From assembly GCA_965218975.1 (NCBI GenBank), contig OZ244717.1:1568001-1632000 (forward strand): a stretch of 64,000 nt of DNA, read 5' to 3'. Below, piece by piece: positions 16,176 to 64,000 of the stretch (position 1 is its first letter; each line of letters begins with the position of its first letter). This stretch comes from Candidatus Oxydemutatoraceae bacterium (GTDB taxonomy: Bacteria > Pseudomonadota > Gammaproteobacteria > Poriferisulfidales > Oxydemutatoraceae). The translations under genes were made by a program, and so were the position numbers. The notes beneath the pieces were generated by a model. The model saw only the letters and a program-made list of their open reading frames with translations, had not been told where the DNA came from and made no database searches.

Positions 16176-16194
16176 CCGGTTTAATTCGTGCCAA

Positions 16195-23990: not shown

Positions 23991-23992
23991 AA

Positions 23993-25180: not shown

Positions 25181-25194
25181 CCCCGCTCTTAGCC

Positions 25195-25377: not shown

Positions 25378-25805
25378 TCATACCTCTTTTTTTCTACATG
25401 GCGCTCCTATGTTATGCAGAAAAAATAGAGAAACAATAGAAAATCGATACACGCGTTGTTTCGGTTTTTCGTATATTCTTTAATCGTTTTGCCCCCGAGA
25501 CGCACTGATTACGTTAGCGCTTTACGGAAAATCGGTAAAAACCGCGACAGTTCTTGTGACGGGTTTCTATAGACCCCTGATTTATGACTGTGCTGTACTA
25601 GCTTTAATGATCTGTGGCGACTGCATGACCTAGTCGCAACAAGTCCTTTACTGGTATTCCAGTAAAGGCACACAGGTCCCGGTGGGGCTTGTGGCAAATG
25701 GCACTTCCGGGATTATTGCAATCCTGCGAGCACCATCTAATCAACGTTTAGCTGTAACCAAAAGGAGGTGTATCACCCGTGAAAATAAACGGCGAGCCGA
25801 ACGCA

Positions 25806-25840
25806 ACCCGTCTCTGTGAAATCTTTACACAGAGACGGGT
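25806..25840. repeat. Perfect 13-bp inverted repeat with 9-nt spacer
   Basis: acccgtctctgtg-aaatcttta-cacagagacgggt. Confidence 0.85.
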
Positions 25841-26113
25841 ACGCAGTAGCCACGCTACCGCTCGTCAAATCAAGATATTGGCAACATGACCGCCGATACA
25901 AAAGCCGACCAACGCTCCGGTGCGGCCCTTCATCCGAAAGGCATTGAAGGGTACAGCACGCAACCCGCAGAGACTTACCTGTTCAGGCGTGCCAGGCATC
26001 AGGGGCTTGTCATTGTCCATACTGTCCCCAACGGACAGTCGCAGGCTGGGCGAACCAGCAAGGCGCGACCGGCGCTCAACCCGGTTTAACACTTACCAGA
26101 ATCAGGGGGATAT

Positions 26114-26480
26114 ATGGGCAAAGTTGGCGGCAACCGGAATTACGGCTACGGCAAGAAGCTGGCCTGGACCGGCAGGAATGCCCTGGCGAACCGGTATGGC
26201 GAGGGTCATTTCAGCACCCGAGCCACGCATGAGGAACGCTGAAATCAGTTTGCTAGTTTCCTGAAACAGGAAGGCATCAACGATGCCATAAAGATCAACC
26301 GGGACGTTATCCAGCGCTATGCAGAGTATCTGAGTACACTGGTGCACAGTGAAGACATGAAAGTAGCTTATGCGCAAAACCTGCTCTCCACTGTGAATGT
26401 CGTGCTGAAAACCATGCGCAAGGACAAGGTCCTGACCATCAGGCCTGCACAGTGCGTAGGACACCGTTCCAATGTCGAAC
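26114..26480 (+). pseudogene. Truncated integrase-domain protein (Integrase_1-like N-terminus)
   Basis: MGKVGGNRNYGYGKKLAWTGRNAL..RYGEGHFST..THEER*NQF...YAQNLLSTVNVVL; in-frame TGA at 26240 and truncation near 26480. Confidence 0.7.
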
Positions 26481-26709
26481 TTCTCGATTGTATTTATTTA
26501 TAGCCTGCTTTTGCTTATTCTGAATTTGGCGATTTTGACTCTGAACTTGAGACAATGATATTTTCTTAACCATAACCTGAGTTCCTTTCTTTTAATCTGC
26601 TACATACCATTAGAATAAAAAACACACCATCTAATCTCTCTTTTGCCATCTCCTAGTTCGGTAACATAAACTGAAAACAGTGGCCAACATTGCTCTATCT
26701 TAACCCGTG

Positions 26710-29397: not shown

Positions 29398-29398
29398 G

Positions 29399-31123: not shown

Positions 31124-31143
31124 ATAAGCTTAAATACTTTGAA

Positions 31144-33462: not shown

Positions 33463-33465
33463 GGC

Positions 33466-33675
33466 CTACTTCTTTATTTGGTGGTTATTTTGTTCTGCCG
33501 CAATATCAACAAGCAAAGACCAGTCTTCCGGTTTCAGGTTGCCAGCAACTATTTTTTGCTGTAGATGTTTACGCCTGGTTTCACTAATAAGGTTTTTCCC
33601 GACCAGTTCATTGATAATTTCTTCAGCAAGCTTAGTTTGTGGTTGCAGTTTTTCGTTTTGGCTCGACATAGTCAC
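33466..33675 (-). CDS. Small hypothetical protein (69 aa) coupled to the ATPase
   Basis: GAGGAG RBS, stop 3 bp before the ATPase start, helical amphipathic pattern with G.LK.EDW. Confidence 0.7.
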   Translation of the reverse strand: MTMSSQNEKLQPQTKLAEEIINELVGKNLISETRRKHLQQKIVAGNLKPEDWSLLVDIAAEQNNHQIKK

Positions 33676-33693
33676 TCCTCGTCTATCAACCTC

Positions 33694-34605
33694 TTAATAT
33701 GGATTATTGTTAAGCACTTCTACCAGCTTTTGTATCGCTTGTGCGCGTTTGTCCTTATTCATCCTGCCCAAGTTAAGTTGCTTCCATCGAACTGCCGGTA
33801 ATTCCTTAGCACTGGGAAATGGCGATAGATTCCAGTTGGGCTCACCTTCTTTAAAGCCAATAAGAAACGCTTTATCTCGTTCCGTCATAGCACTTAGAAT
33901 TTTGACCGGCAAAGAGGATTGCACTTCACGCAGTCGTTCCAAACTGACATCCTTTTTTGTCATCCCCAGAAACTGATTATTATAGAGATGTCCCATATCC
34001 TGGATGTTAGGAGCCAGCATTTCATGAATCGGTTTGCCTTGGCTGATTAAATAAATTAGAAAAGCATCAAGTACCTCTCTTGTTAGTCCCTCGCCTTCTT
34101 CCAAAAACAGCAAGGTATCGAATAAATCTCGTGGATGTTGCCTTTGCAAAGCTGCACATAGTTTGCCTGCATACAATTCTGTTTTTGCCATGCAGTCTAT
34201 ATTCATGCCCCTATTGAATTCTTGCTCCAATGATGGGCATAAAGGCATCCCAACTGGTGGTAGCAAGGTCTCGCGTATCACATGATTGGGTTCAATTTTT
34301 GTTAATGCCTTTTCGTTCTGCACTAGAGCATTACCGGTCTTTGGATCAATGCTCACTTTTGTATCTGGCAATAACTTTTCAATCTCCGATTTAATGGCTT
34401 CCATATTATCCCGAATATCCTGCAGCGCTTCTTCGCGGCTATTCCGTGGTAAGTAATGCAAGTCAATATCTACAGAAAGTCTGGGGCAATCCAGAACAAA
34501 AAAATTGATGGCCGTGCCTCCTTTCAGTGCAAACACTTCTGTCTGGGCAACGATAGGCAATATGTCCAGCAGCAGGCTGACTTGCCTTTGGTGCTCTTCT
34601 CTCAA
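33694..34605 (-). CDS. abiEii: AbiEii/AbiGii family nucleotidyltransferase toxin (type IV TA)
   Basis: FALKGGTAIN, RLSVDIDL, KL.AAL.RQHPRDLFD. Confidence 0.92.
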   Translation of the reverse strand: MREEHQRQVSLLLDILPIVAQTEVFALKGGTAINFFVLDCPRLSVDIDLHYLPRNSREEALQDIRDNMEAIKSEIEKLLPDTKVSIDPKTGNALVQNEKALTKIEPNHVIRETLLPPVGMPLCPSLEQEFNRGMNIDCMAKTELYAGKLCAALQRQHPRDLFDTLLFLEEGEGLTREVLDAFLIYLISQGKPIHEMLAPNIQDMGHLYNNQFLGMTKKDVSLERLREVQSSLPVKILSAMTERDKAFLIGFKEGEPNWNLSPFPSAKELPAVRWKQLNLGRMNKDKRAQAIQKLVEVLNNNPY

Positions 34606-35399
34606 GAACCCACCCGCCAGTTCTCGGGTACTGTTATGCCAAATTCTGGATGCAGCAAGCCCCCGTTAACAATACTACGTTTACCTGTACCAAGATTGAC
34701 AGACTCCAAGTTTAGGTCGTTGTACCATTTGTGGCCGACAGTACTGGCTAACACTAAGAACAGCCGCTTGGCTTTTACCGATCTGCAAGCCTGGAGCGTG
34801 CTTTGCAGAAGCTGAACGCGCAAAGTCGTCAACCCCTCCATCAATTGCCAAGCTTCCTCAAAATCCGCGTATTTTGGCAATAAAAAGCAATACTCCAGCA
34901 TAGCTCGCTCAGGCGAACTAATCTTCAGCAATAATTTTTCAGTATGCCAATTAACCAAACTAGTGAAGGCTGGTCTGAATAACGCACTACCATTAAGTAC
35001 GCGCAGACTTGTGGCAAATGATTGGCGTCTAAACCAAAATGGTAATTTTTTATTTGATTCCACACTTAGCTGTAGAATCGGATTAGCCCCGACTTGCAGG
35101 TAATGCGCGCGCCCTTGGAGTTCTAATGCCGTCCGTGCCGCGGGGTAGACCATCAACTGCCGTTGCTGCAGAGCATAGATGGAACCTGCCAAAGTAGCCT
35201 CTGTACCAGCCCGTATCCAAGCTCCCCTACCCAAAGGCTCCAACCAACCGCTATTTTTATAGCGTTGTAGCAATTGGGGAGAAACATGCTGTGAATTAAG
35301 CCATCCACTGGTCATCGGTACCCCAGTAGGACATTTTGTCAGCAAACGGTTAATTTTGGTTACCGACAGCCTTTTATCCTGTGTTCGTGCAAAACTCAT
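34602..35399 (-). CDS. abiEi: AbiEi family antitoxin (type IV TA)
   Basis: wHTH-like N-terminus (SGWL..LGRG), TALELQG.AHY, SSPERAMLE, C.SVK.KRLFL; 4-bp overlap with the toxin gene. Confidence 0.9.
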   Translation of the reverse strand: MSFARTQDKRLSVTKINRLLTKCPTGVPMTSGWLNSQHVSPQLLQRYKNSGWLEPLGRGAWIRAGTEATLAGSIYALQQRQLMVYPAARTALELQGRAHYLQVGANPILQLSVESNKKLPFWFRRQSFATSLRVLNGSALFRPAFTSLVNWHTEKLLLKISSPERAMLEYCFLLPKYADFEEAWQLMEGLTTLRVQLLQSTLQACRSVKAKRLFLVLASTVGHKWYNDLNLESVNLGTGKRSIVNGGLLHPEFGITVPENWRVGS

Positions 35400-35528
35400 T
35401 TCAAATTGCCCAGGTTCACATATAACGTAACTATCTAGTTTGAAATCTTAATAGCAGATAAATAAATAGTATATCTATAGGTGATACCAGGCAACTAATT
35501 ATTTAATTATTTTCTCATAAATAAATAT

Positions 35529-35560
35529 ATAGTTTATTTATTATATATTATTTAAACTAT
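35529..35560. promoter_or_regulatory. Putative AbiEi operator inverted repeat
   Basis: atagttta-N16-taaactat in the very AT-rich region upstream of abiEi. Confidence 0.45.
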
Positions 35561-35566
35561 CAAAAA

Positions 35567-38401
35567 TCAGGCAACTTCCCAAAATATGTTAAATAGCTGT
35601 TCTTCATTGACTTTTTGCTCTAGTTTGGCTTCAAGGTCACTAATCAATTCCTCACGGGAACTATCTACTGCATCTTGTTTATCAAACAGTTCGTGACGCT
35701 TTCTACTACGCAGTTTCTCAAGCTCGCGCTGCTGTTTCTGCCATTGCAGTTTTTCATTCAGCCCTGGAGCCGCCTTAGCAGTACGGCGGATTTCTCTTAT
35801 TTCTTTATCTAGCTCTTTAATTTCCTGTTCAAGCCCTACTTTTAAGTCATCTGCCCACGCATCGATCTTTTCAACCTCTGTCTCAAAATATTTAAGATTG
35901 CGCTCATTTATCTCTTTTAGTATGCCGGTTTTCCGATGGCCTAATTCATCAACTAAAGCTGGTAGATAGTTGACTTGAGTTTTGTTACTCCAGAAAACAG
36001 GAAAGCCTAGCATCTTTTCCAATACCTCCTGAGGGAGTAATTCACCTTTATCTGTCTGACCGCAGAGCACAACATAGTCTTCTGCTCGCTCAAGAGACTC
36101 TACGGTTATCAGGTGCGCAGCCAATTGACCAGATTGTCCCCGTAATTTCTTGATGACTGCCGCTTGAGTGTCTGTCGCACTGTAGTCAAAAGTTAGCTTT
36201 GCAGTGGAAAGCTCCCTCTCCTTTGCTTGCTGAATCAACCATTGTGCCAAAGGATGGCCTAGTCGATAGATATGGGTTTCTCCTTCCCGCCGTGGCAACT
36301 CATACTCACCTAGCGATATATCTGCTGGTGCATTTACAGGCAGGCTTCCAAGAACAAAGCCACCATTTACCTCTGTAATTGAATCATCAAGCTCACCCTT
36401 AGTTAGCTTTAGAAGCATTTTTTCATAGCGGTCCAATGAGGCGGTGCTGTCTATCTTGATTTTCTGCAGTACATCTTCATCAAAATGTTCAAACAGTCGC
36501 TTTTGTGTATTAACCATCTGCGCACTAACTTTGTGGGCCAACTCGAGTTGTAATTGCTCAAAAGCCATGATGATTTGTTTGGGTTTCCGGCAGGTCTGAT
36601 AAATGTCCTTAATGCGCTTTTCAAAGTTGACCCCACTTTCAATAGCACCTAGCACTTCATCCGATGCGCCAAATACCCCGTCAAACAGTCTGAATTTTTG
36701 CTCTAACAGCTCATAAACTCTTCGGTCTGCTTCATTAGTCAGGTCAATAAAGTTGAGCACGACAACATCGTGCTTTTGCCCGTAGCGGTGACACCGACCA
36801 ATGCGCTGTTCAATCCGTTGTGGATTCCAAGGCAAGTCATAGTTAATCACTAGTGAGCAAAATTGTAGATTGACTCCCTCAGCGGCAGCCTCTGTGGCTA
36901 TCATGATTCGCCCATAATCGCGGAAATACTCAACCAAAGCAGCGCGAGTATCCGCTGTTTGGGAACCAGTGACTTTGTCTGAGTCTTGATGGTGAGTCAG
37001 CCAGTCTTTGTATATTTGTTTTGCTAACTGATCACTATTCGTTCCATTAAACAGTACAATACCGTCTCGATATTCGCTATCACTCAACAGCCGCAATAAA
37101 TAATCTTGGGTTTTACGGGATTCGGTAAAAATAATAGCTTTCTCATTAGCATTTAGCTCTTCCAGTTTCTCAAAGCCGATTTTTAATGCCTTGAATAAAG
37201 CATTGCCTTTACTGTTATGGCGAATATTTTCAGCTAACTCCTTGAAGCCTTTAAGTTCTTCAATTTCTGCCTGTATAGATTCACGTTTTTGTTGTGAGAT
37301 AGCAGGCTGCTCTTCCCATTCCTCAGACGTTTCACTCAAGGCTTCATAGTCCGCCTGAATTTCATCAATAGTTTGTCGATCGTCCAAATCCTGATCTTCG
37401 AGGCTACGCTCTAACCTTGTGATAATTGACCCTAGTGCACCTGCAATAGCAAAAGACGACGACGCCAAAAGCTTCCACATTACCATTGAAATCAGTTGGC
37501 GTTGCCCGGCAGGCAAAGCATTGAGTTCCGGACGACGAAGGTAATCTGATACCAAACTGTAAAGTCGCTGCTCGTCGCTGTTTGGAGTAAATTTTTGCAC
37601 CAATGGAATACGCTTGGTATAGGAAACATAAGCCTGCACCTGTTCCCTTAAAGTACGTTTGCACACTGGAGCAATTCTGTGCTTTAATCTAGCAAAGGAG
37701 TAAGTCTCGTTGACTCGCCCATACTGTATCCTGAAACTATTTATATCACCAAAAATTTTATTATCGAGAACACTGACTAAGCCATATAGTTCCAACAATG
37801 TGTTCTGTAACGGTGTGGCAGTTAGTAAAATCTTATCTACGGCTGATAACGCTTCCTTGATTGCCTTGGCGATCTTGTTACTTTTTTTATACACATTACG
37901 TAACCGATGCGCTTCGTCAATCACTGCTAAATCCCAAGGTACCATTTTCACATCATTTGCCTTAGTTTTAGCAAATTGGTAAGAGCAGATAATCAGCCCT
38001 TCACCAACATCAAAGGGGGTTCTTATTCCCTCTTTCTTGGCTTTGTTATAATTTGCGGACTCAAGAACCCTACCATCAATACCAAACTTATCCTGCATCT
38101 CCTGATGCCACTGTTTTCTAAGATTAGCTGGTACGATTACTAAAATGCGGCGTTTATACTCAGCCCACTTTTGAGCAATAACTAAACCAGCTTCAATTGT
38201 CTTACCCAAACCAACTTCGTCGGCAAGCAACACCCCTTTGTTTAGAGGACTTTTGAAGGCGAATAGTGCCGCATCAACCTGGTGAGGATTAAGATCAATT
38301 TGAGCGTCCATAATCGCACCAGTCAGCTTGTCCTGATCGTCAGATGAAAGACGGCGAGTGAGTTGCCATGCAAAATATTGTGTTTGGTAATGCGTATACA
38401 A
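35567..38401 (-). CDS. SNF2-family helicase with C-terminal coiled coil
   Basis: LLADEVGLGKT, IDEAH, LTATPLQN, YDLPWNP..IEQRIGRCHRYGQ. Confidence 0.93.
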   Translation of the reverse strand: MYTHYQTQYFAWQLTRRLSSDDQDKLTGAIMDAQIDLNPHQVDAALFAFKSPLNKGVLLADEVGLGKTIEAGLVIAQKWAEYKRRILVIVPANLRKQWHQEMQDKFGIDGRVLESANYNKAKKEGIRTPFDVGEGLIICSYQFAKTKANDVKMVPWDLAVIDEAHRLRNVYKKSNKIAKAIKEALSAVDKILLTATPLQNTLLELYGLVSVLDNKIFGDINSFRIQYGRVNETYSFARLKHRIAPVCKRTLREQVQAYVSYTKRIPLVQKFTPNSDEQRLYSLVSDYLRRPELNALPAGQRQLISMVMWKLLASSSFAIAGALGSIITRLERSLEDQDLDDRQTIDEIQADYEALSETSEEWEEQPAISQQKRESIQAEIEELKGFKELAENIRHNSKGNALFKALKIGFEKLEELNANEKAIIFTESRKTQDYLLRLLSDSEYRDGIVLFNGTNSDQLAKQIYKDWLTHHQDSDKVTGSQTADTRAALVEYFRDYGRIMIATEAAAEGVNLQFCSLVINYDLPWNPQRIEQRIGRCHRYGQKHDVVVLNFIDLTNEADRRVYELLEQKFRLFDGVFGASDEVLGAIESGVNFEKRIKDIYQTCRKPKQIIMAFEQLQLELAHKVSAQMVNTQKRLFEHFDEDVLQKIKIDSTASLDRYEKMLLKLTKGELDDSITEVNGGFVLGSLPVNAPADISLGEYELPRREGETHIYRLGHPLAQWLIQQAKERELSTAKLTFDYSATDTQAAVIKKLRGQSGQLAAHLITVESLERAEDYVVLCGQTDKGELLPQEVLEKMLGFPVFWSNKTQVNYLPALVDELGHRKTGILKEINERNLKYFETEVEKIDAWADDLKVGLEQEIKELDKEIREIRRTAKAAPGLNEKLQWQKQQRELEKLRSRKRHELFDKQDAVDSSREELISDLEAKLEQKVNEEQLFNIFWEVA

Positions 38402-41997: not shown

Positions 41998-42732
41998 TCA
42001 TAAACGCTTTATATGAAATAACAATTTTCTTATCCAAATACTTACATACATTCTTTTAATCAAACGAATTTTTTCAAAAATAGTTTGCGCAGGACGCTTT
42101 GCACTGACAGGAACATACCAGCAATTCTGCCTTGTACGTTTTACTAAAACATAACCGTGCTTTTTTAAATACCTATGCTTAGTCAAATGTAAATGTTTAT
42201 CCTCTAACAAAATCAACTTCGGCTTATAGTGTTCTAAATCAAATCCTCGCAGTACCTCTAGCTCAGCCCCTTCCACATCTATAGAGAGTAAATCAATCTG
42301 TTCAATATTGGCATCTAGCAAAATTGAGTTCAGTGTTCTGGCCCTTACAGTGATCTTTTTATGAAAACGAAAGTGCCCATCATCAATATTTTTCCTAATC
42401 GCGGATCTGGAGAAAAGATCAACTCCTTCTTTAGAGTTTCTAGGTATGAACAATGAAACTGTGCCGGTGTCCTCCGAGTCTATACATGTGCATTCGAAAA
42501 CCTTTGAGCCGGGTCTGTACCTCCTGCACCTTGCTGCCATTTCAGGAATAGGTTCAATCAACACACCGCGCCAACCCAAGCCATTTTCTAAGTACCAAGA
42601 CTGGGAACCAAAGCTAATCGGATCATTAGCTCCAACCTCTACAAAATAACCATTTCTTTTAAAATCAAAGTACTCTTGAATAAAAGCATTCTCGGCACTT
42701 GCCTGTAGGGATTTATCACGAATCCTAGCCAT
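41998..42732 (-). CDS. FkbM family methyltransferase
   Basis: GYFVEVGAND, GWRGVLIEP, IDLLSIDVEGAELEVLRG. Confidence 0.92.
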   Translation of the reverse strand: MARIRDKSLQASAENAFIQEYFDFKRNGYFVEVGANDPISFGSQSWYLENGLGWRGVLIEPIPEMAARCRRYRPGSKVFECTCIDSEDTGTVSLFIPRNSKEGVDLFSRSAIRKNIDDGHFRFHKKITVRARTLNSILLDANIEQIDLLSIDVEGAELEVLRGFDLEHYKPKLILLEDKHLHLTKHRYLKKHGYVLVKRTRQNCWYVPVSAKRPAQTIFEKIRLIKRMYVSIWIRKLLFHIKRL

Positions 42733-42895
42733 TGTTGATAAAAATATTAATTATGACTTTCAACAAAATATAAAAAAATACACACTGCATTCAATGTTTT
42801 TTTCATCCAAGCATTGATAATTCCGGTAACGCTTTTGTTTTAGAAAGGGTGCTGAAAGCCTCTTTCCGAGCCAATATACTATATAATGCTGCGAT

Positions 42896-43741
42896 ATGCC
42901 TATTTCTGTATCGGTAATCGTTACCACTTATAATCAGCCCCACTATCTTGAGTTGGTACTATGCGGGCTGAGTCTGCAAAAATCTCCCCCCTTAGAAATT
43001 CTTATCGCAGATGACGGATCAAACCAAGACACTGCAATTCTCGTAGAGAAGTGGCGAAAAAAAACTACCCTCTCAATCAATCATATTTGGCATGAAGATA
43101 TCGGAAACCGAAAATTAGAAATTTGCAACAAAGCTGTCGCAGAGGCAGCTGGCAATTATTTGCTATTTTTAGACGGTGACTCAATTCCGCATCCTTTTTG
43201 GGTAAACGATCACTTAAAAGCGGCAAAAAAAGGTTTTGTGCTATGCGGAAGAAGAGTAAGGCTAGGGCCGAAGATTTCTAAAGTAATTGATATCCCGTTT
43301 ATTGAGTCCGGAAAGTTGGAAAAAATTATCGGTCCGATCTTGCTGAGCGCGCTCAGCAAAGATACCAAGCGCTTTCTACTTGGGATGCGTCTGCCAAGAT
43401 GGTTGGCTAGATGTTTTCATCCGACCGAACGACGTCTTATGGGAATAAACTTTAGTTTGCATAAAAGCTTATTTGAAAGTGTTGGCGGATACTTTGGCTA
43501 TGATAAAGATTTTTATAAGTTAAAAGGGAGACCGCGGGAAGATGCACAGCTTGAAATACAGCTTCTAAAGGCAGGGGCTCGCCGGTATCCTCTCATCAAT
43601 CGGGCAGTTGTGTATCACCTATTTCACCCTGAAAGACTAGTCAATAAAGACCTTAATGAGTCAATCGAAAAAACCTACAAGTCAACTTTGCATAATAGAA
43701 AACTGAAGAAAAGCCGATCATTATTTCAACCCGAATGTTGA
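42896..43741 (+). CDS. Glycosyltransferase family 2
   Basis: SVIVTTYN, IADDGS, FLDGD, REDA, HL.H. Confidence 0.92.
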   Translation: MPISVSVIVTTYNQPHYLELVLCGLSLQKSPPLEILIADDGSNQDTAILVEKWRKKTTLSINHIWHEDIGNRKLEICNKAVAEAAGNYLLFLDGDSIPHPFWVNDHLKAAKKGFVLCGRRVRLGPKISKVIDIPFIESGKLEKIIGPILLSALSKDTKRFLLGMRLPRWLARCFHPTERRLMGINFSLHKSLFESVGGYFGYDKDFYKLKGRPREDAQLEIQLLKAGARRYPLINRAVVYHLFHPERLVNKDLNESIEKTYKSTLHNRKLKKSRSLFQPEC

Positions 43742-43933: not shown

Positions 43934-44623
43934 TGTACGATGCCACCCTAAATGGGATTTTTGAAGAGCTTCGAGGGAAGCATTCGGCAGTAACATTCGG
44001 ATCGGTGCTTTCTGTTGCCCGTTGTCGGCATGAGGACGGTGCGGTTGAAGCGCTTGATGTGCGCGTTCATTTTCGGACACTTGGGATAGGTCAGCCGCTG
44101 CTCAATCACGGGTGATTCCCGGATGAACCGGGCAAACTGTCCTTGAAACTCACTCCCGCCGTCCGTCAGGGTGAGACGCGCCCGGAAAACCGATCGGTTT
44201 TCAGCGGCGAACGACCCGACAAGGACGTCGGGGCTGGCGCTCATTGACAGAACCAAGTCTCGTCATGGACGAGCAGGGTGAGACGCGCCCGGAAAACCGA
44301 TCGGTTTTCAGCGGCGAACGACCCGACAAGGATGTCGGGCTGGCGCTCATTGACAGAACCAAGTCTCGTCATGGACGAGCAGGGTGAGACGCGCCCGGAA
44401 AACCGATCGGTTTTCAGCGGCGAACGACCCGACAAGGATGTCGGGGCTGGCGCTCATTGACAGAACCAAGTCTCGTCATGGACGACAGGCACTTTGCTGA
44501 GCATTCACCAACAAACACAAAACGGTTCCATAACCGGTCATTGAATGCTTCCGTATCGATGAATAGCAGGTCTTCCGCATGATCGATACAATCTTCTTGT
44601 CCGGAATATATTGGACACGTACA
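43934..44623 (-). mobile_element. Non-autonomous IS481-like remnant no. 1 (690 bp) with internal 107-bp array
   Basis: Ends TGTACGATGCCA and TGTACGTGTCCA (inverted); transposase pieces LTDGGSEF..YPKCPKMNAHIKRFNRT and QEDCIDHAEDLLF. Confidence 0.8.
44167..44486 (+). repeat. 3 tandem copies of the ~107-bp multi-hairpin unit
   Basis: Units start cagggtgagacgcgcccggaaaaccgatcggttttc at 44167, 44274, 44380. Confidence 0.95.
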
Positions 44624-51667: not shown

Positions 51668-51843
51668 ATCTGCTGCCTATTGTCCAAAGAGCGATTTAGC
51701 GGGGAATTATAACAAAGCCTATTATGGAATCAAGAAATTGTACGATGCCACCCTAAATGGGATTTTTGAAGGGCTTCGGGGGAAGCGTTCGGCAGTAACA
51801 TTCGGATCGGTGCTTTCTGTCCGTTGCCGGCATAAGGACGGTG

Positions 51844-52048
51844 CAGGGTGAGACGCGCCCGGAAAACCGATCGGTTTTCGGTGGCGAACGACCCGACAAG
51901 GACGTCGGGGCTGGCGCTCATTGACAGAACCAAGTCTCGTCATGGGTGAGACGCGCCCGGAAAACCGATCGGTTTTCAGCGACGAACGACCCGACAAGGA
52001 CGTCGGGGCTGGGGTTCATTCGCAGAACCAAGTTTCGTCACAGACGAC
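51844..52048 (+). repeat. 2 copies of the ~107-bp unit (first slightly truncated)
   Basis: Starts at 51844 and ~51944. Confidence 0.92.
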
Positions 52049-52292
52049 AGACACTTTACTGACAACACGGCAACAAACACAAAACGGTTTCATAACCGGT
52101 CATTGAATGCTTCCGTATCGGCGAATAGCAGATCTTCTGCATGATCGATACAATCTTCTTGGACGGTGCGGTTGAAGCGCTTGATGTGCGCGTTCATTTT
52201 TGGACACTTGGGATAGGTCAGCCACTGCTCAATCACGGGTGATTCCCGAATGAGCCGGCAAACTGTCCTTGAAACTCACTCCCGCCGTCCGT

Positions 52293-52612
52293 CAGGGTGA
52301 GACACGCCCGGAAAACCGATCGGTTTTCAGCGGCGAACGACTCGACAAGGACGTCGGGGCTGGCGTTCATTGGCAAAACCAAGTCTCGTCATAGACGACA
52401 GGGTGAGACGCGCCCGGAAAACCGATCGGTTTTCAGCGGCGAACGACCCGACAAGGATGTCGAGGTTGAGGTTCATTCGCAGAACTAAGTCTTGTCACGG
52501 ACGAGCAGGGTGAGACGCGCCCGGGAAACCGATCGGTTTTCAGCGGCGAACGACTCGACAAGGACGTCGGGGCTGGCGCTCATTGACAGAACCAAGTCTT
52601 GTCACGGACGAC
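52293..52612 (+). repeat. 3 tandem copies of the ~107-bp unit
   Basis: Starts at 52293, 52399, 52506. Confidence 0.94.
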
Positions 52613-53230
52613 AGACACTTTACTGACAACACGGCAACAAACACAAAATGGTTTCATCAGCTCAAAGACTTTACTGCTGCCGAAATTCTGCCCGGCGCGG
52701 GCGACGCAACCTGTTGATCCGACGGTACGGTCGGCGCCGACCGCGGGCATCGAGGCGCTGCGGGATACGGCGCATCTTATCGAGGGCTGCGGCGATGATG
52801 CGCCCGATAGTCGAGACGCTGGGTGTGGCCAGGCCGTGGCGCTCGCACCACGGCTCAAGGTGTCCGGCTTCCCTCAAGGTCTGCCGCCACCGATACAAGG
52901 TACGGCGACTGACCTTGAATGCATCGCAGGCAGCGGCCATGCCATGGTTTTCCTGGAAGGTGAGAATTTTGAGTCGTTGTTTTGCATCGTAAGTCATAGT
53001 ATCCTAACTATGCCCAATTTTAGCGACCCGGTAAAACCCCCGGATTCGATAGCCTATATGTTGGATTTGCAAGGCTTCTCCTCCTGTCGGCAGGAGTGCC
53101 AAATGTTTCTGAGCTTATGCAATACCCTCATTGAACTAGCAACTTTTAACTAGTGTACGATGGCAACCGAATCGCTAAAGCTAATCAATTCTCCCACTAC
53201 TGCCGATAAGTTCTGGACGGATGTTGATCT

Positions 53231-56839: not shown

Positions 56840-57073
56840 CCGCATTTCCGCTCCCGACATAGTTTTTTGAACGTCTCTACTTGTGCAGCGCTTTTTTTCG
56901 CCGCAAATACTTAATTCTTCACGGTAGCTATACCAACTTTCGTCACATGAGAGTACGGCAATCTTACATTGGCCATAACAGTCATTATTACCCGGCCAGC
57001 CAAATTAATCGTACCCCAACGCATTCTCGCCACCGGCTTTCCGCTTGAAACCATAGCGTCGTGCACATGACTG

Positions 57074-58207
57074 TTACTGTTCATTGTTATCATTCCTCGA
57101 AATTAGTCTTTCAGAGAATTTCCATCCGGTGTTGATCGCTCGATAATGATAGAAATACTCTCGGCTGGATAAATGTCTTCTCATCTTTTTCTCCAGCCAA
57201 TTTTGCGCACGAGTCAGTCCGAGTTCATAAAGTACTTTGAGAGGTATTTTAGGAAGTATGTACATTATGTGGTCATATAAATTTGGCATTATATGCGCTC
57301 TATGCAAATCTAAAAATAAAGTTTTTCCCATTGCAACGATATACTTACAATCATCCTCTTTCAGATCGGCATATCTGTGAGTAAAGTGCTTGAACGAATA
57401 GCTTTCAGGCAACTTTTTATTTGTTTTTGTTCCAATCCAATAAGAATAAAAATAGACCAGTCGGCATCGCTTGTACCTTTTCAAGTCATGCGTTTGCAGC
57501 AGTTCATCAATATCGAAGTTCAACAGATGCCCGCTGCGGTACTTGTAACTGCATATCGTCAACAAACTTCTTTGCAGAAACATAACCTCCCACATATAGC
57601 ATCCATATACCTGAAAGTGCCTCTCTAAACCGAATTTGCAAGGTGCCGGAATGACAATGGCGTCGACTTTGGGTAACTGTCGGCTGTTGTTGTCATAGAT
57701 GATAACCCGGTCCACACCCAGCCTCTTGTAATGTTCAATCCAGTCTTTTATCCAATGTTCCCGGTTGTTTTTGTTTATCGCACATAACGTAAACCTGCTC
57801 TTAGTGCCGGTATTGTTGATCGGCACTTTCAACTCCCAGTGCTGACGACTTCCCATCCCCGCTACTTTGATCAAAACTTCATTCAGCGGTTTGACGTTGC
57901 GCACACATCCTTTGACCAAATACATTAAAGACAAAGAAGGAGGCGTGACCGTACGTAGCTTGATCGGTTTTCCGTTGACATAGATTTCCACGTCCAACTG
58001 CAAATTGCCCAAAGGCGGACCAGCCGCTATTATCCACTTGTTGGTGGAATCAAAGAATACGTCGTAGAACAGCGTGTCGAAATCGAAACACTCCTCCATA
58101 TGCCTCTTATCTATCTTAGCGGCAAGTTCTTTTCCCAGAAAATATGCCGGGTCCCGCCGCATCTCCCGCAACTTAATGCCTCTGAGCTGATGCACGTCGT
58201 GTTTCAT
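57074..58207 (-). CDS. GT-A fold glycosyltransferase-like protein (GT92/Glyco_tranf_2_4-like), paralog A
   Basis: WIEHY..LGVD..IYDN.S and NFDIDELL (DxD); start placed at MKHDVHQ. Confidence 0.72.
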   Translation of the reverse strand: MKHDVHQLRGIKLREMRRDPAYFLGKELAAKIDKRHMEECFDFDTLFYDVFFDSTNKWIIAAGPPLGNLQLDVEIYVNGKPIKLRTVTPPSLSLMYLVKGCVRNVKPLNEVLIKVAGMGSRQHWELKVPINNTGTKSRFTLCAINKNNREHWIKDWIEHYKRLGVDRVIIYDNNSRQLPKVDAIVIPAPCKFGLERHFQVYGCYMWEVMFLQRSLLTICSYKYRSGHLLNFDIDELLQTHDLKRYKRCRLVYFYSYWIGTKTNKKLPESYSFKHFTHRYADLKEDDCKYIVAMGKTLFLDLHRAHIMPNLYDHIMYILPKIPLKVLYELGLTRAQNWLEKKMRRHLSSREYFYHYRAINTGWKFSERLISRNDNNEQ

Positions 58208-58351
58208 AACCATCGGCACAGGATGACTTGCGTCGCGCCTGCAAGCAATGCAGAACCTGAACCGTCAAGGTATGAAGGGCCGGGTTCACCAAGCTTTTTA
58301 CGAACGTTTTCTATGAGTAGAAAAAACAATACTATTAAATTGAAAGTTTTA

Positions 58352-59470
58352 TTATTGTTTACTGTTGCCATTCATCGATATTGACCTTTTAGAGTGTTTC
58401 CACTCGGTATTGATCGCTCGATAATGATAATAGTAATCTTGGCTGTAATTTCCTTTCCCCATTATCTTGTTTTTCAGCCTTTGTCCGGTACGAATCAGCC
58501 CGAGCTTATAAAGCGCTTTAAGCACTACACGGACATACAACTTTTGTACCAAAGTACATTGGTGCGGCTTCAAGAATAAAGCCTCTTTCATGGCAATTAT
58601 ATATTTATAACTACAATTCCGCAAAGAGATATCTCTGCAAGTAAAATGTTTGAACGAATAGTTTTCAGGCAACTTTCCATCTGCTTTTGCTTTAATCCAA
58701 TAAGAATCAAAATAGACCTGTTTGTGTCGCTTGTACCTTCCCAAATTGCTCGTCTGCAACAGTTCATCAATATCAAAGTTCAACAGATACCCGCTGCGGT
58801 ACTTGTAGCTACATATCGTTAATAAACTTCTCTGAAGAAACCCTGCCCTCCACATCAAACTGCTTTTATACACCCGAATATATTTATTTAAGCCGTATTT
58901 GTAGGGTGCCGGAATGACAATGGCGTCGACTTCGGGTAACTGTCGGCTGTCGTTATCATAGATTATAACTCGATCTACGCCCAGCTTCCTATAATGTTCA
59001 ATCCAGTCTTTTATCCAATGCTCCCGGTTGTCTTTGTTTAAAGCACATAACGTAAATCTACTCTTGGCGCCGGTATTGTTAATCGGTATTTTCAACTCCC
59101 ACTGCTGCCGGCCTCTTATCCATCCCACTTTGATCAAAACTTCATTCAGCGGTTTGACGTTGCGCACACGTCCTTTGACCAAATACATTAAAGACAAAGA
59201 AGGAGGCGTGACCGTACGCAGCTTGACCGATTTTTCGTTGACATAGATTTCCACGTCCAACTGCAAATTGCCCAAAGGCGGACCAGCCGCTATTATCCAC
59301 TTGTTGGTGGGATCAAAGAATACGTCGTAGAACAGCGTGTCGAAATCGAAACACTCCTCCATATGCCTCTTATCTATCTTAGCGGCAAGTTCTTTTCCCA
59401 GAAAATATGTCGGGTCCCGCCGCATCTCCCGCAACTTAATGCCTCTGAGCTGATGCACGTCGTGTTTCAT
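58352..59470 (-). CDS. Glycosyltransferase-like protein, paralog B
   Basis: Same motifs; N-terminal half near-identical to paralog A. Confidence 0.72.
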   Translation of the reverse strand: MKHDVHQLRGIKLREMRRDPTYFLGKELAAKIDKRHMEECFDFDTLFYDVFFDPTNKWIIAAGPPLGNLQLDVEIYVNEKSVKLRTVTPPSLSLMYLVKGRVRNVKPLNEVLIKVGWIRGRQQWELKIPINNTGAKSRFTLCALNKDNREHWIKDWIEHYRKLGVDRVIIYDNDSRQLPEVDAIVIPAPYKYGLNKYIRVYKSSLMWRAGFLQRSLLTICSYKYRSGYLLNFDIDELLQTSNLGRYKRHKQVYFDSYWIKAKADGKLPENYSFKHFTCRDISLRNCSYKYIIAMKEALFLKPHQCTLVQKLYVRVVLKALYKLGLIRTGQRLKNKIMGKGNYSQDYYYHYRAINTEWKHSKRSISMNGNSKQ

Positions 59471-59613
59471 AACCATCGGCACAGGATGACTTGCACCGCG
59501 TCTGCAAGCAATGCAGAACTTAAACCGTCAAGGTATGAAGGCCTTGACTCGCCAAGCTTTTTACGAACGTTTTCTATGAGTAGAAAAAACATACTATTAA
59601 ATTGAAAATTTTA

Positions 59614-60747
59614 TTATTGTTTACTGTCGTTATTCGCAGAAATTGATCTTTCAGGAAATTTCCACCCGGTATTGATCGCTCGATAATGGTAGAAACACTC
59701 TCGGCTGTGGCTTCCTTTCTCTTTTACTTCTAGCCATTTCTTTACCCATTTCCTCGTACGGTGCAGCCCGAGCTTATAAAGCACTTCGCACACCACACGG
59801 ACATATAACTTTTGTACCAAAGTACATCTGTGCATCTTCAAGAATAAAACCTCTTTCATTGCAACGATATACTTAATATCATAAGGTGTATAAGTTTGCC
59901 GATCGGTATGTCTGTGAGTAAAGGACTTGAACGAATAGTTTTCAGGCAACTTTTTATTTGTTTTTGCTCCAATCCAATAAGGACGAAAATAGACCGTCTT
60001 GCATCGCTTGTACCTTTCCAAGTCATTCGTCTGTAGCAGTTCATCGATATCAAAGTTCAACAAATGCCCGCTGCGGTACTTGTAGCTACATATCGTCAAT
60101 AAACTTCTCTGAAGAAATCCTACTCTCCATATCAAACTGCTTTTATACACCCGAATATATTTATTTAAGCCGTATTTGTAGGGTGCCGGAATGACAATGG
60201 CGTCGACTTCGGGTAACTGTCGGCTGTCGTTATCATAGATTATAACTCGGTCTACGCCCAGCTTCCTATAATGTTCAATCCAGTCTTTTATCCAATGCTC
60301 CCGGTTGTCTTTGTTTAAAGCACATAACGTAAATCTACTCTTGGCGCCGGTATTGTTGATCGGCACTTTCAACTCCCACTGCTGCCGGCCTCTTATCCAT
60401 TCCACTTTGATCAAAACTTCATTCGGCGGTTTGACGTTGCGCACACGTCCTTTGACCAAATACATTGAATACAAAGAAGGAGGCGTGACCGTACGTAGCT
60501 TGATCGGTTTTCCGTTGACATAGATTTCCACGTCCAACTGCAAATTGCCCAAAGGCGGACCAGCCGCTATTATCCACTTGTTGGTGGAATCAAAGAATAC
60601 GTCGTAGAACAACGTGTCGAAATCGAAACACTCCTCCATATGCCTCTTATCTATCTTAGCGGCAAGTTCTTTTCCCAGAAAATATACCGGATCCCGCCGC
60701 ATCTCCCGCAACTTAATGCCTCTGAGCTGATGCACGTCGTGTTTCAT
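59614..60747 (-). CDS. Glycosyltransferase-like protein, paralog C
   Basis: Same motifs as paralog A. Confidence 0.72.
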   Translation of the reverse strand: MKHDVHQLRGIKLREMRRDPVYFLGKELAAKIDKRHMEECFDFDTLFYDVFFDSTNKWIIAAGPPLGNLQLDVEIYVNGKPIKLRTVTPPSLYSMYLVKGRVRNVKPPNEVLIKVEWIRGRQQWELKVPINNTGAKSRFTLCALNKDNREHWIKDWIEHYRKLGVDRVIIYDNDSRQLPEVDAIVIPAPYKYGLNKYIRVYKSSLIWRVGFLQRSLLTICSYKYRSGHLLNFDIDELLQTNDLERYKRCKTVYFRPYWIGAKTNKKLPENYSFKSFTHRHTDRQTYTPYDIKYIVAMKEVLFLKMHRCTLVQKLYVRVVCEVLYKLGLHRTRKWVKKWLEVKEKGSHSRECFYHYRAINTGWKFPERSISANNDSKQ

Positions 60748-60846
60748 AACCATTCAAGGTATGAAGGTTCGGTTTCACCGAATCTTTTACCCCCTCCACT
60801 ACGGGCAAAAAGCAGAAAGAATATGCTGTCAAAATCAGAAGTTTTA

Positions 60847-62004
60847 TTACTGTTCACTGTTACTACTCATCGAAATTGACCTTTGAGGATGTTTCCACCC
60901 GGTATTGATCCCTCGGTAATGATAGAAATACTCTCGGCTGAATAAATCTCTTCTCATCTTTTCCTCCAGCCATTTTTGCGCACGGCGCAGCCCGAGTTCA
61001 TAAAGCACTTTGAGAAGTATTTTGGGAAGTAATTCGTACGATATCATGCGTTCATATAAGCGCTCATATAATAAATTTTGCACCAAATACGCCCTATGCA
61101 AATCCAAGCATAAAACTTTTCCCATTGCAACGACATACTTCACATTCGCATAATCTAATCTGGTATCTCTGTAAATAAAATGCTTGAACGAGTAGTTTTC
61201 AGGCAACTTTCCATCCACCTCTGCTTCTACCCAATGAGAACGAAAATAGAGTATCTTACGTCGCTTGCACTTTTTCAAATCATTCGTTTGCAGCAATTCA
61301 TCGATATCAAAGTTCAACAAATGCCCGCTGCGGTACTTGTAACTACATATCGTCAATAAACTTCTCTGAAGAAATCCTACTCTCCATATCAAACTGCTTT
61401 TATACACCCGAATGTATTTATTTAAGCCGTATTTGTAGGGTGCCGGAATGACAATGGCGTTGACTTTGGGTAACTGTCGGCTGTTGTTGTCATAGAGGAT
61501 AACCCGGTCTACGCCCAGCCTCTTGTAATGTTCAATCCAGTCTTTTATCCAATGTTCCCGGTTGTTTTTGTTTATCGCACATAACGTAAACCTGCTCTTA
61601 GTGCCGGTATTGTTGATCGGCACTTTCAACTCCCAGTGCTGACGACTTCCTATCCCCGCTACTTTGATCAAAACTTCATTCAGCGGTTTGACGTTGCGCA
61701 CACATCCTTTGACCAAATACATTAAATACAAAGAAGGAGGCGTGACCGTACGTAGCTTGATCGGTTTTCCGTTGACATAGATTTCCACGTCCAACTGCAA
61801 ATTGCCCAAAGGCGGACCAACCGCTATTATCCACTTGTTGGTGGAATCAAAGAATACGTCGTAGAACAACGTGTCGAAATCGAAACACTCCTCCATATGC
61901 CTCTTATCTATCTTAGCGGCAAGTTCTTTTCCCAGAAAATATACCGGATCCCGCCGCATCTCCCGCAACTTAATGCCTCTGAGCTGATGCACGTCGTGTT
62001 TCAT
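60847..62004 (-). CDS. Glycosyltransferase-like protein, paralog D
   Basis: Same motifs as paralog A. Confidence 0.72.
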   Translation of the reverse strand: MKHDVHQLRGIKLREMRRDPVYFLGKELAAKIDKRHMEECFDFDTLFYDVFFDSTNKWIIAVGPPLGNLQLDVEIYVNGKPIKLRTVTPPSLYLMYLVKGCVRNVKPLNEVLIKVAGIGSRQHWELKVPINNTGTKSRFTLCAINKNNREHWIKDWIEHYKRLGVDRVILYDNNSRQLPKVNAIVIPAPYKYGLNKYIRVYKSSLIWRVGFLQRSLLTICSYKYRSGHLLNFDIDELLQTNDLKKCKRRKILYFRSHWVEAEVDGKLPENYSFKHFIYRDTRLDYANVKYVVAMGKVLCLDLHRAYLVQNLLYERLYERMISYELLPKILLKVLYELGLRRAQKWLEEKMRRDLFSREYFYHYRGINTGWKHPQRSISMSSNSEQ

Positions 62005-62147
62005 AACCATCGGCACAGGATGACTTGCACCGCGTCTGCAAGCAATGCAGAACTTAAACCGTCAAGGTATGAAGGCCTTGACTCGCCAAGCTTTTTACGA
62101 ACGTTTTCTATGAGTAGAAAAAACATACTATTAAATTTAAAATTTTA

Positions 62148-63308
62148 TTATTGTTTACTGTCGTTATTCGCAGAAATTGATCTTTCAGGAAATTTCCACC
62201 CGGTATTGATCCCTCGGTAATGATAGAAATACTCTCGGCTGAATAAATCTCTTCTCATCTTTTCCTCCAGCCATTTTTGCGCACGGCGCAGCCCGAGTTC
62301 ATAAAGCACTTTGAGAAGTATTTTGGGAAGTAATTCGTACGATATCATGCGTTCATATAAGCGCTCATATAATAAATTTTGCACCAAATACGCCCTATGC
62401 AAATCCAAGCATAAAACTTTTCCCATTGCAACGACATACTTCACATTCGCATAATCTAATCTGGTATCTCTGTAAATAAAATGCTTGAACGAGTAGTTTT
62501 CAGGCAACTTTCCATCCACCTCTGCTTCTACCCAATGAGAACGAAAATAGAGTATCTTACGTCGCTTGCACTTTTTCAAATCATTCGTTTGCAGCAATTC
62601 ATCGATATCAAAATTCAGCAGATGTCCGCTGCGATACTTGTAACTACATATCGTCAGCAAGCTTCTTTGTAGAAACATAGTCTCCCACATATAACATCCA
62701 TATACTAAATAGTATTTATTTAAGCCGTATTTGTAGGGTGCCGGAATGACAATGGCGTTGACTTTGGGTAACTGTCGGCTGTTGTTGTCATAGAGGATAA
62801 CCCGGTCTACGCCCAGCCTCTTGTAATGTTCAATCCAGTCTTTTATCCAATGTTCCCGGTTGTTTTTGTTTATCGCACATAACGTAAACCTGCTCTTAGT
62901 GCCGGTATTGTTGATCGGCACTTTCAACTCCCAGTGCTGACGACTTCCCATCCCCGCTACTTTGATCAAAACTTCATTCAGCGGTTTGACGTTGCGCACA
63001 CGTCCTTTGACCAAATACATTAAACATGAAAAAGGAAGTTTGGCCGTACGCAGCTTGAGCGGTTTTCCGTTGACATAGATCTCCACATCCAGCCGTAAGT
63101 TACCCAAAGACGGACCGGCCGCTATTATCCACTTGTTAGTGGGATCAAAGAATACGTCGTAGAACAATGTGTCGAAATCGAAACATTCCTCCATATGTCT
63201 GTTATCTATCTTAGCAGCAAGTTCTTTTCCCAGAAAATATGTCGGGTCCCGCCGCATCCCTTTCAGGCGAATACCTCTGAGCTGATGCACGTCGTGTTTC
63301 ATGGGCAT
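62148..63308 (-). CDS. Glycosyltransferase-like protein, paralog E (first of the array)
   Basis: Same motifs; start at MPMKHDVHQ, since the longer ORF-track start runs into the IS end. Confidence 0.72.
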   Translation of the reverse strand: MPMKHDVHQLRGIRLKGMRRDPTYFLGKELAAKIDNRHMEECFDFDTLFYDVFFDPTNKWIIAAGPSLGNLRLDVEIYVNGKPLKLRTAKLPFSCLMYLVKGRVRNVKPLNEVLIKVAGMGSRQHWELKVPINNTGTKSRFTLCAINKNNREHWIKDWIEHYKRLGVDRVILYDNNSRQLPKVNAIVIPAPYKYGLNKYYLVYGCYMWETMFLQRSLLTICSYKYRSGHLLNFDIDELLQTNDLKKCKRRKILYFRSHWVEAEVDGKLPENYSFKHFIYRDTRLDYANVKYVVAMGKVLCLDLHRAYLVQNLLYERLYERMISYELLPKILLKVLYELGLRRAQKWLEEKMRRDLFSREYFYHYRGINTGWKFPERSISANNDSKQ

Positions 63309-63320
63309 TAACAATAAATT

Positions 63321-64000
63321 TGTACGTGTCCAGATACATACTGGATTCTTGAATGTCAATAAAAAGGCGACCGACATGCAATATCAGCACATCGGCCACC
63401 GCATCAAAGGTTTCTATAAAATAGCCAATTTTACTTTAAAAATAGAGGCTCATGAACACAACGGCTCAACAGAAACACGATGCCCTGTTATTTTGGGAGG
63501 ATTGTAACCCCAAACGCATTCAAGGTCGGTCGCAGCACTTTGTACCGCTGGCGCCGGCGTTATCGCCGCACTGGCCTCAGCGCCTTACATGATCGCGGCA
63601 AAGCGCCGCGTAAGAGGCGCCAGCGGGTTGTCAGCAAAGTGCCTATCGTCCATGACGAGACTTGGTTCTGTCAATGAACGCCAGCCCCGACGTCCTTGTC
63701 GAGTCGTTCGCCGCTGAAAACCGATCGGTTTTCCGGGCGCGTCTCACCCTGCGCCAAGATTATCCGAATCTCGGCAGCAGTAAAAGCTTTGAACTGATGA
63801 AACCGTTTTGTGTTTGTTGCCGTGTTGTCAGTAAAGTGTCTGTCGTCCGTGACGAAACTTGGTTCTGCGAATGAACCCCAGCCCCGACATCCTTGTCGGG
63901 TCGTTCGCCGCTGAAAACCGATTGGTTTTCCGGGCGCGTCTCACCCTGCTCGTCCATGACGAGACTTGGTTCTGTTAATGAACCCAGCCCCGACGTCCTT
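63321..64000 (+). mobile_element. IS481-like remnant no. 3 (runs off the window) with 107-bp units
   Basis: Left end TGTACGTGTCCAGAT; MQYQHIGHRIKGFYK, AFKVGRSTLYRWRR, RQDYPNLG in broken frames. Confidence 0.8.
63646..64000 (-). repeat. 3 copies (last partial) of the ~107-bp unit in reverse orientation
   Basis: 63646-63751, ~63843-63948, 63949 to window end. Confidence 0.92.

Follow-up and report, generated by a model that had tools for sequence, protein, structure and literature searches.

How should a row of five similar, reshuffled glycosyltransferase-like genes be read: as a device that varies surface glycans, or as the ordinary fate of genes repeated in tandem? Such a row lies on the minus strand at 57074-63308 of a 64,000-nucleotide (nt) stretch of DNA from a Candidatus Oxydemutatoraceae bacterium (assembly GCA_965218975.1, contig OZ244717.1, positions 1,568,001 to 1,632,000), which we analysed over its whole length and call the window. 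The organism is an uncultured gammaproteobacterium without a close public genome: the relatives of the window's UvrB are uncultured gammaproteobacterial proteins, the nearest match being 86% identical and the best named one, from a Ca. Oxydemutatoraceae metagenome-assembled genome, 75%. Ca. Oxydemutatoraceae and Ca. Porifericomitales are described as sponge-associated groups (PMC12625764), and we infer that the window's organism is sponge-associated as well. A preliminary description, drawn from the sequence alone, had proposed a candidate combinatorial glycan-variation locus in which repeated gene conversion or unequal crossover shuffles specificity modules, possibly varying surface glycans against phage or host. 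Exchange between the copies is borne out by the present analysis. We consider it probable that the array is a lineage-specific tandem expansion of five surface-glycan transferases, whose mosaic structure is a by-product of tandem repetition under purifying selection and not a dedicated variation device.

Sequence exchange among five tandem genes

The array consists of five co-oriented, intact open reading frames (ORFs), which lie in the window in the order A-B-C-D-E (Table 1) and, judging by their strand, would be transcribed from E through D, C and B to A. A repeat finder returned five units with start-to-start distances of 1263, 1277, 1257 and 1298 nt, in agreement with the period of about 1.26-1.30 kb first described, and all frames are open. 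Over the 1185 columns of a codon alignment of the five genes, pairwise nucleotide identity ranged from 79.1% (B/E) to 92.4% (D/E). A diagonal scan for near-identical tracts found eleven of them, 164-515 nt long and joining seven different copy pairs. The block of about 420 bp previously noted as identical in D and E proved to be exactly 420 nt long without a single mismatch. It is the most recent exchange in the array, and over its columns identity in the other pairs is 51-90%. The tail and spacer that C and E had been said to share are part of a longer tract of 442 nt, which runs on into the first 247 nt of the next gene; the unit of exchange or duplication therefore crosses gene boundaries. 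The common C-terminal tail of C and E, FPERSISANNDSKQ, is present in both translations. The 515-nt tract shared by D and A is an exchange between non-adjacent copies.

Sliding windows along the alignment showed how the relationships change from one part of the genes to the next (Table 1). The near-constant N-terminus of the preliminary description holds for A-D and fails for E, whose first ~310 nt form the most divergent head of the five. Both variable blocks listed there were present in the translations, namely AG(M/I)GSRQH in A, D and E versus WIRGRQQ in B and C, and VYKSSL(M/I)WR in B, C and D versus VYGCYMWE in A and E. By themselves, these two blocks both fit one tree, ((B,C),D,(A,E)). 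What brings trees into conflict is the site patterns DE, AC, CE and BD, together with abrupt changes in identity.

Informative sites that set two copies against three (148 in total) fall in runs and are distributed as BC 61, DE 29, AE 15, AB 11, AC 11, CD 6, BE 4, AD 4, BD 4 and CE 3; among pairs of informative sites, 38% are incompatible. For the pairwise homoplasy index (PHI) we obtained 0.198 (permuted mean 0.384) and for the neighbour similarity score (NSS) 0.911 (against 0.617), values reached in 0 of 2000 permutations each. PHI was likewise reached in 0/2000 when third codon positions alone, or first and second positions, were used, and the longest identical runs for DE, AD, CD, AE and BC were each reached in 0/2000 column shuffles. 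Approximately unbiased (AU) tests of the 15 five-taxon topologies over six segments of the alignment (S1, S2 and so on) left no topology standing throughout, each of the 15 being rejected (p<0.05) in one segment or more. BC|A|DE, the tree that best fits the gene as a whole, is rejected in S1 (0.018) and in S3 (0.014). S3 accepts only trees that pair A with E and S4 only trees that pair D with E. The claim that no single duplication tree explains the five genes is thus upheld.

A stronger argument for exchange than the AU tests comes from synonymous divergence (dS). Between D and E, dS is 0.42 in S1, 0 in S2 and saturated in S3, and there are no synonymous differences at the 37 sites of S4 or the 44 of S5. 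Among A-D, dS in S1 is 0-0.05, as against 0.18-1.0 for the pairs other than D/E in S4-S5. Here dS jumps along one and the same gene pair; selection on the protein cannot produce such jumps, but the copying of DNA can. Gene conversion or unequal crossover among five intact paralogs, as first proposed, is supported by the tracts and by the PHI, AU and run tests, and exchange of this kind is the only reading that fits.

The most likely start of gene E is the ATG at 63308 (MPMKHD), which is also the end coordinate of the preliminary description, and not 63377, where the longest ORF begins, because relatives begin at the same conserved motif and because a terminator-like hairpin overlaps the start of the longer ORF. 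The E-D spacer differs from the C-B spacer (59483-59613) at one position and is similar to the B-A spacer (58220-58351), whereas the D-C spacer (60754-60846) is shorter than the E-D spacer and different in sequence. The fold of the E-D spacer is no better than that of shuffled sequences (z = -1.5). No further copy or fragment of the gene was found elsewhere in the window (best match outside 57000-63400, E = 0.087). A search of 5.8 billion protein clusters returned four clusters from the array's own 2.08-Mb contig, D and E sharing one; the genome therefore appears to hold five full-length copies. Opposite the conserved 5' gene ends, antisense ORFs of 80-107 amino acids (aa; MPLIYLSGKFF...) recur on the plus strand at 58100-58384, 59363-59605 and 61897-62220; they repeat only because the DNA repeats and show no sign of being genes.

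Table 1. Features of the array and of other parts of the window (window coordinates unless alignment or protein positions are given).
Feature	Position	Strand	Details
Gene A	57074-58219	-	381 aa; last in array; upstream spacer and nt 1-503 close to D (515 nt, 6 mismatches); nt 314-503 identical to E (190 nt)
Gene B	58352-59482	-	376 aa; head close to A, C and D; nt 403-629 close to C
Gene C	59614-60753	-	379 aa; head close to D and A; middle close to B; final 61 nt identical to E
Gene D	60847-62016	-	389 aa; hybrid; head close to C and A; nt 314-603 close to E; nt 551-720 close to C; nt 706-1125 identical to E
Gene E	62148-63308	-	386 aa from ATG; GT92-like; longest ORF 62148-63377; first in direction of transcription
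E-D spacer	62017-62147	-	holds hairpin GTCAAGGCCTTCATACCTTGAC
Terminator-like hairpin	63400-63366	-	14 pairs followed by a T run; immediately precedes gene E, at the upstream limit of the array
D/E tract	62193-62612 (E) = 60892-61311 (D)	-	420 nt, 0 mismatches
Boundary-crossing tract	61770-62211 (E tail, E-D spacer, D head) vs 59236-59677 (C tail, C-B spacer, B head)	-	442 nt, 7 mismatches
D/A tract	61514-62028 (12 nt of spacer upstream of D, D nt 1-503) vs 57717-58231 (upstream of and in A)	-	515 nt, 6 mismatches
E/A tract	nt 314-503 of A vs E	-	190 nt, 0 mismatches
Sliding windows	alignment nt 1-312		A, B, C and D mutually 96-100%; E 82-92%
Sliding windows	alignment nt 313-591		A = D = E (99-100%) vs B = C (97-100%); between groups 82-89%
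Sliding windows	alignment nt 592-705		B = C = D (92-99%); A closest to E (79-87%)
Sliding windows	alignment nt 706-1125		D = E identical; at 84-90%, A closest to C, then B to C, then A to D/E
Sliding windows	alignment nt 1126-1185		C = E identical
Variable positions	aa 1-102		20/102
Variable positions	aa 103-195		20/93
Variable positions	aa 196-233		14/38
Variable positions	aa 234-300		38/67
Variable positions	aa 301-379		55/79
Array boundary, outside array	63480-63984		truncated helix-turn-helix (HTH) transposase-like fragment (63480-63677, +) and two copies of a 106-nt dispersed repeat
Dispersed repeat clusters	44167-44489; 51840-52690	+
Dispersed repeat cluster	63624-63984	-
Defence island	26710-31123		restriction-enzyme-like protein and DNA methyltransferase
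Defence island	31144-33462		AAA ATPase
Defence island	33694-35399		AbiEii/AbiEi toxin-antitoxin pair
Defence island	35567-38401		DISARM DrmD-like helicase

Enzyme family and relatives

The glycosyltransferase assignment, originally made by motif, is strengthened by profile searches. All five proteins match PF01697 (glycosyltransferase family 92, GT92) at 33.4-35.9 bits against a cut-off of 23, the best stretch covering profile positions 3-43 in four proteins and 3-214 of 249 in B. Four of the five reach the cut-off for PF13704, and the Pfam matches start near residue 143. A family profile built from 79 sequences matches a poplar galactan synthase (8d3t_A) with an E-value of 2.7e-8, residues 232-346 of the chain aligning to profile positions 210-317, and a shallower profile of 48 sequences gave no match in the PDB. 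The conserved core comprises a Y-D-N-x-S motif (aa 173-177), the DxD motif (D235-I-D237-E) and two histidines, H308 and H356. Y173, N175, S177, D235, D237 and E238 are invariant in the 79 family members and the histidines at least 90% conserved; all of these residues are invariant among the five. Of 40 positions with a conservation of 80% or more across the remaining 78 members, 38 likewise do not vary among the five. Because all five retain this core, they are probably catalytically competent.

An N-terminal module of about aa 1-135 precedes the matched region. It is family-specific, in that 24/24 matches to the module carry PF01697. Pfam gave no match for its 135 residues (E up to 1), and the alignment to 8d3t does not extend into them. 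The proteins are basic (pI 9.5-9.8), and no transmembrane segment was found in any of them (maximum 19-residue hydropathy 1.15). Searches of NCBIfam (two of the proteins), PADLOC (three) and PHROGs (three) gave no match, nor did tblastn against phage records; against plasmids it gave one weak match, in an uninformative neighbourhood and annotated as a capsule biosynthesis protein. In GT-A enzymes the region around and after the DxD motif shapes acceptor use. Variation among the five proteins is concentrated after this motif: 93 of the 146 positions of aa 234-379 vary, compared with 40 of the 195 positions of aa 1-195.

The five copies form one clade in a tree of whole proteins (SH-aLRT, an approximate likelihood ratio support value, 99) as well as in separate trees of the two protein halves (N-terminal, 100; C-terminal, 96), unlike the paralogs of other contigs, which interleave in the family tree. 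The window array is therefore a lineage-specific expansion. Path lengths among the five are 0.6-0.9 changes per site in the C-terminal half versus 0.08-0.29 in the N-terminal half, and in aa 234-300 the copies are 56-73% identical to each other versus 55-61% to proteins of other genomes. Close homologues (43 at 44-59% identity) come from few contigs, and 9 of the 13 contig groups hold two to ten paralogs. A wider profile search of genomes and metagenomes returned 1439 representative two-domain proteins at E up to 0.001, of which 196 at E up to 1e-30. Among more distant homologues, that of Chromohalobacter israelensis (locus L021) is split into overlapping ORFs (9899-10504 and 10452-10997), probably a frameshifted gene within an otherwise intact cluster of the lipopolysaccharide (LPS) type.

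The closest genome locus for the glycosyltransferase, and the one that the window locus most resembles, is an array in a Ca. Porifericomitales metagenome-assembled genome (MAG; CBDEFV010000007.1, locus L001). It holds ten consecutive co-oriented genes with the same two Pfam matches at a spacing of 1132-1486 nt, whose proteins are 49-54% identical to the window copies; like the window array it lies among housekeeping and not glycan genes and is compositionally atypical (GC 0.50 over 8579-21052 versus 0.65 in the flank). The atypical composition runs in opposite directions, GC at third codon positions (GC3) being higher in the window array, and GC lower in the L001 array, than in the respective genomes, and could in both cases reflect foreign origin or a family-specific bias. 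The two arrays differ in their recent history: the L001 copies are 72-82% identical with a longest identical run of 59 nt, and PHI is borderline (reached by 50/1000 permutations), which points to little recent exchange. Furthermore, paralogs from L001 and from other contigs are intermixed in the tree, and the genomic neighbourhood is different. The first gene of L001 contains a run of nine G (8901-8909), with its frame open as assembled; the window array has no such tract. Homopolymer tracts such as G9 can switch genes on and off by slippage.

By-product of tandem repetition or device for variation

On the reading we favour, the five genes would encode soluble, basic, two-domain glycosyltransferases that share a sugar donor, or take similar ones, and may add different decorations to a cell-surface glycan. 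Homologous recombination between the units (gene conversion, unequal crossover or both) has repeatedly copied tracts of 164-515 nt, including between non-adjacent copies and across gene boundaries. Such exchange begins and ends in the most conserved stretches, homogenises the 5' part and seldom crosses the diverged 3' part. In A-D, the first third of the gene has been homogenised while older divergent alleles of the 3' half persist, except for the very recent D/E exchange. Because breakpoints in conserved stretches are the default of homologous recombination, the module-like appearance of the blocks is no evidence of design, and we regard the mosaic as the ordinary evolution of tandem gene copies. 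Pairwise dN/dS is 0.08-0.32 in S2-S3, 0.30-0.91 in S4-S5 and 0.20-0.22 in S1 (E versus the others).

Features expected of a switch were looked for and not found. The region 57000-63500 contains neither homopolymers of at least 7 nt nor units of 2-7 nt repeated four or more times, and there are no inverted repeats inside the array, all those found belonging to the flanking clusters of the 106-nt repeat. No silent or partial cassettes occur in the window, where all five copies are full length with start codons, and no recombinase adjoins the array, the only integrase-like ORF found being that at 24468-25118. The adenine-template pattern of a diversity-generating retroelement was absent, A occurring in either copy at 24-33% of the differences and transitions making up 66-77%. 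No defence-system or phage family was matched (PADLOC, PHROGs, phage tblastn). Of the earlier proposal that shuffled specificity modules vary surface glycans, the exchange is hence supported, whereas a selected or ongoing role as an adaptive device is not, given dN/dS below 1 wherever counts are meaningful, the lack of switch features and the little exchange seen in L001.

As to the target, we propose a cell-surface glycan because distant homologues sit among glycan and LPS genes; the array enzymes would most likely act on the LPS core or O-chain, or on a capsule-like polymer. Polysaccharide genes surround 18 of the 24 distant homologue loci compared (26-32% identity), and 12 of the 24 carry LPS hallmarks (O-antigen ligase family, GT9 heptosyltransferase, lipid A acyltransferase or Kdo kinase), counts that overstate independence since 14 of the 24 loci belong to Halomonadaceae. 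Several further points also weigh against our interpretation. The substrate assignment leans on the neighbourhoods of these distant loci, the glycan context being weak in two of them (L003, L005) and absent in four (L016, L017, L020, L023), and no glycan genes adjoin the array itself, which is flanked by an aspartate aminotransferase gene and uvrB on one side and by a transposase fragment and repeats on the other. The variable blocks (aa 120-128, aa 199-213 and from aa 243 onwards) are placed on the enzyme from sequence motifs only, as far as their position can be judged. A promoter scan was at chance level (15 sites versus 14.8 expected), and no promoter or ribosome-binding site was found. 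The array is slightly atypical in composition, with a GC3 of 0.52 versus 0.385-0.49 in 14 housekeeping genes and a codon-use r of 0.71 versus 0.76-0.94. The AU segments were drawn after the pattern had been seen and without correction for multiple tests, and the rejections in S1 rest on few sites. Finally, dN/dS is 0.91 for A/C in S4 and 1.39 for A/B in S1, the sole value above 1, on one synonymous and five non-synonymous differences; with five recombining sequences compared in pairs, positive selection on individual sites could escape notice.

Could the mosaic have arisen without any exchange, or be no mosaic at all? Serial duplication followed by region-specific divergence rates would produce some gradient, given that the N-terminal half is more conserved family-wide than the C-terminal end (mean 0.36-0.42 vs 0.28). 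This explanation is practically untenable, however, in view of the rejection of every tree in some segment, the PHI result even at third codon positions and the shift of synonymous divergence within the same pair from 0.42 to 0, and the PHI and AU tests together with the tracts already refute it. Repeats of 1.26-1.30 kb at 79-92% identity are a known trouble spot for assemblers, and in a collection of 15 billion proteins those of the array occur on one contig only, no independent assembly confirming them; mis-joined strain variants or homogenisation by short-read polishing could then hide fewer, or non-mosaic, true copies. Against such an artefact, the tracts differ in age (0 to 7 mismatches over 164-515 nt), and polishing cannot create the older shared blocks at 84-90%, such as that of A/C in S4. 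The divergence of the other pairs in the columns of the D/E tract likewise means that cross-mapping reads could not have equalised two diverged copies, all five frames are open, and the 2.08-Mb contig suggests a long-read assembly, which leaves an artefact very improbable.

The remaining alternatives accept the genes and their recombination and differ in target or purpose. That the enzymes modify a protein, a small molecule or a secreted polymer and not LPS or capsule would suit an array without glycan-pathway neighbours and the four distant loci that also lack glycan context; moreover, the family seems to lack a characterised bacterial member, the PF01697 literature found being all eukaryotic. 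The majority of distant loci among polysaccharide genes, half of the total with LPS hallmarks, and the capsule annotation of the single plasmid match speak for the cell surface instead, and we hold such a different target to be rather unlikely. The array could also be an adaptive combinatorial locus, in which recombination is selected for new specificities and for escape from phages or host. The mosaic is indeed real and some events are very recent (the 420-nt and 190-nt tracts without mismatch), variation is concentrated past the DxD motif, and the divergent alleles of aa 234-300 are retained despite homogenisation elsewhere. Arrays of the subfamily recur in relatives from sponge-associated groups (PMC12625764), O-antigen has been proposed as a determinant of recognition and a phage receptor in sponge symbionts (PMC4453008), and nematode GT92 paralogs shape surface glycans and susceptibility to pathogens (PMC13105082). 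Nevertheless, dN/dS is below 1 in all comparisons with meaningful counts, none of the switch elements sought was found (repeat tracts, silent cassettes anywhere in the window, inverted repeats within the array itself, an adjacent recombinase), the ten-gene array of L001 is almost without recent exchange, and breakpoints in conserved stretches are what homologous recombination alone would give; we therefore judge selection for variation unlikely. We give similarly little credence to a standing generator, in which all copies would be expressed and hybrid enzymes would arise continually, making cells differ in their glycans and evade sponge phagocytes or phages. An expansion of surface-glycan transferases with an incidental mosaic remains the reading we prefer.

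Surroundings, comparable systems and significance

Beyond the array, the window contains a dispersed repeat of 98-106 nt in ten copies (0 expected, 95% mean identity), some in tandem runs of two or three. It belongs to no Rfam family, folds no better than shuffled sequences (z = -1.6) and is absent from all 26 loci compared. The clusters at 51840-52690 and 63624-63984 are mutually inverted (219 nt, 91%) and bracket an 11-kb segment with uvrB, the aminotransferase gene and the array. Truncated HTH transposase-like fragments (IS630-type HTH, HTH_28) lie at 52671-52997 (minus strand) and 63480-63677 (plus strand) in a mirror arrangement, each beside a repeat cluster, and look like decayed insertion sequences on both sides of this segment. 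Further away (23457-38401), a transfer-messenger RNA (tmRNA) gene, whose tag reads ANEDNYALAA, precedes an integrase fragment (24468-25118) and a defence island (Table 1). Genes for an FkbM-family methyltransferase and a GT2 glycosyltransferase occupy 41998-43741, a stretch of lower GC (0.40) 13 kb from the array. A link between them and the array was considered and rejected, the connection being only family-level similarity to genes beside a Desulfobacteraceae homologue.

Concerted evolution of tandem bacterial paralogs is known to involve tracts of a few hundred nucleotides copied between repeats, homogenisation of parts of genes and mosaic alleles. The window array is similar in that the head of the edge copy, E, is the least homogenised; it differs in that homogenisation stops around the catalytic motif, the 3' half keeping alleles at a dS of 0.2-1.0. 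The Neisseria lgt locus encodes enzymes of different families, and paralog pairs in it recombine. Its five tandem genes, lgtABCDE, build the variable outer part of a surface glycolipid (PMC2192810; PMC10327513), and their variation arises from homopolymer tracts inside the genes (PMC10327513). Here, too, several glycosyltransferase genes stand in tandem (five, co-oriented), but they are five copies of one gene, unlike lgt, and the array is without a tract of at least 7 nt. Among described systems, the window locus most resembles tandem glycosyltransferase loci such as lgtABCDE.

At the level of the enzyme, the best comparison is GalS1, the poplar beta-1,4-galactan synthase (PDB 8d3t), with which the profile alignment spans the DxDE motif and a conserved histidine. 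GalS1 combines an N-terminal acceptor-binding CBM95 with a C-terminal GT-A domain that uses a histidine base (PMC11062476), and the window proteins, too, have a two-module layout in which the catalytic domain comes after an N-terminal part. That the N-terminal module might bind the acceptor like CBM95 of GalS1 is a guess. The alignment to 8d3t takes in no more than about 108 of the 395 profile positions, the N-terminal module of the array proteins is without a Pfam match, and the window proteins are bacterial, cytoplasmic and without a membrane anchor. The GT92 literature found centres on eukaryotes (plants, nematodes, fungi), and among the matches listed in our literature searches there was no characterised bacterial member and no description of bacterial GT92 arrays.

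Against this background, the subfamily stands out as one that has been amplified into arrays of five to ten genes in uncultured gammaproteobacteria whose named relatives belong to sponge-associated groups (PMC12625764). A standing generator, if it existed, would be a glycan counterpart of the cassettes of protein antigenic variation, without silent copies or repeat tracts. The array is a clean natural case of partial concerted evolution, in which one half of a gene is homogenised while the other keeps old alleles, and its five natural chimeras could be used to map acceptor specificity in a GT-A enzyme. If the enzymes do decorate LPS or capsule, they would offer a handle on how sponge symbionts show glycans to host cells and phages or hide them (PMC4453008).

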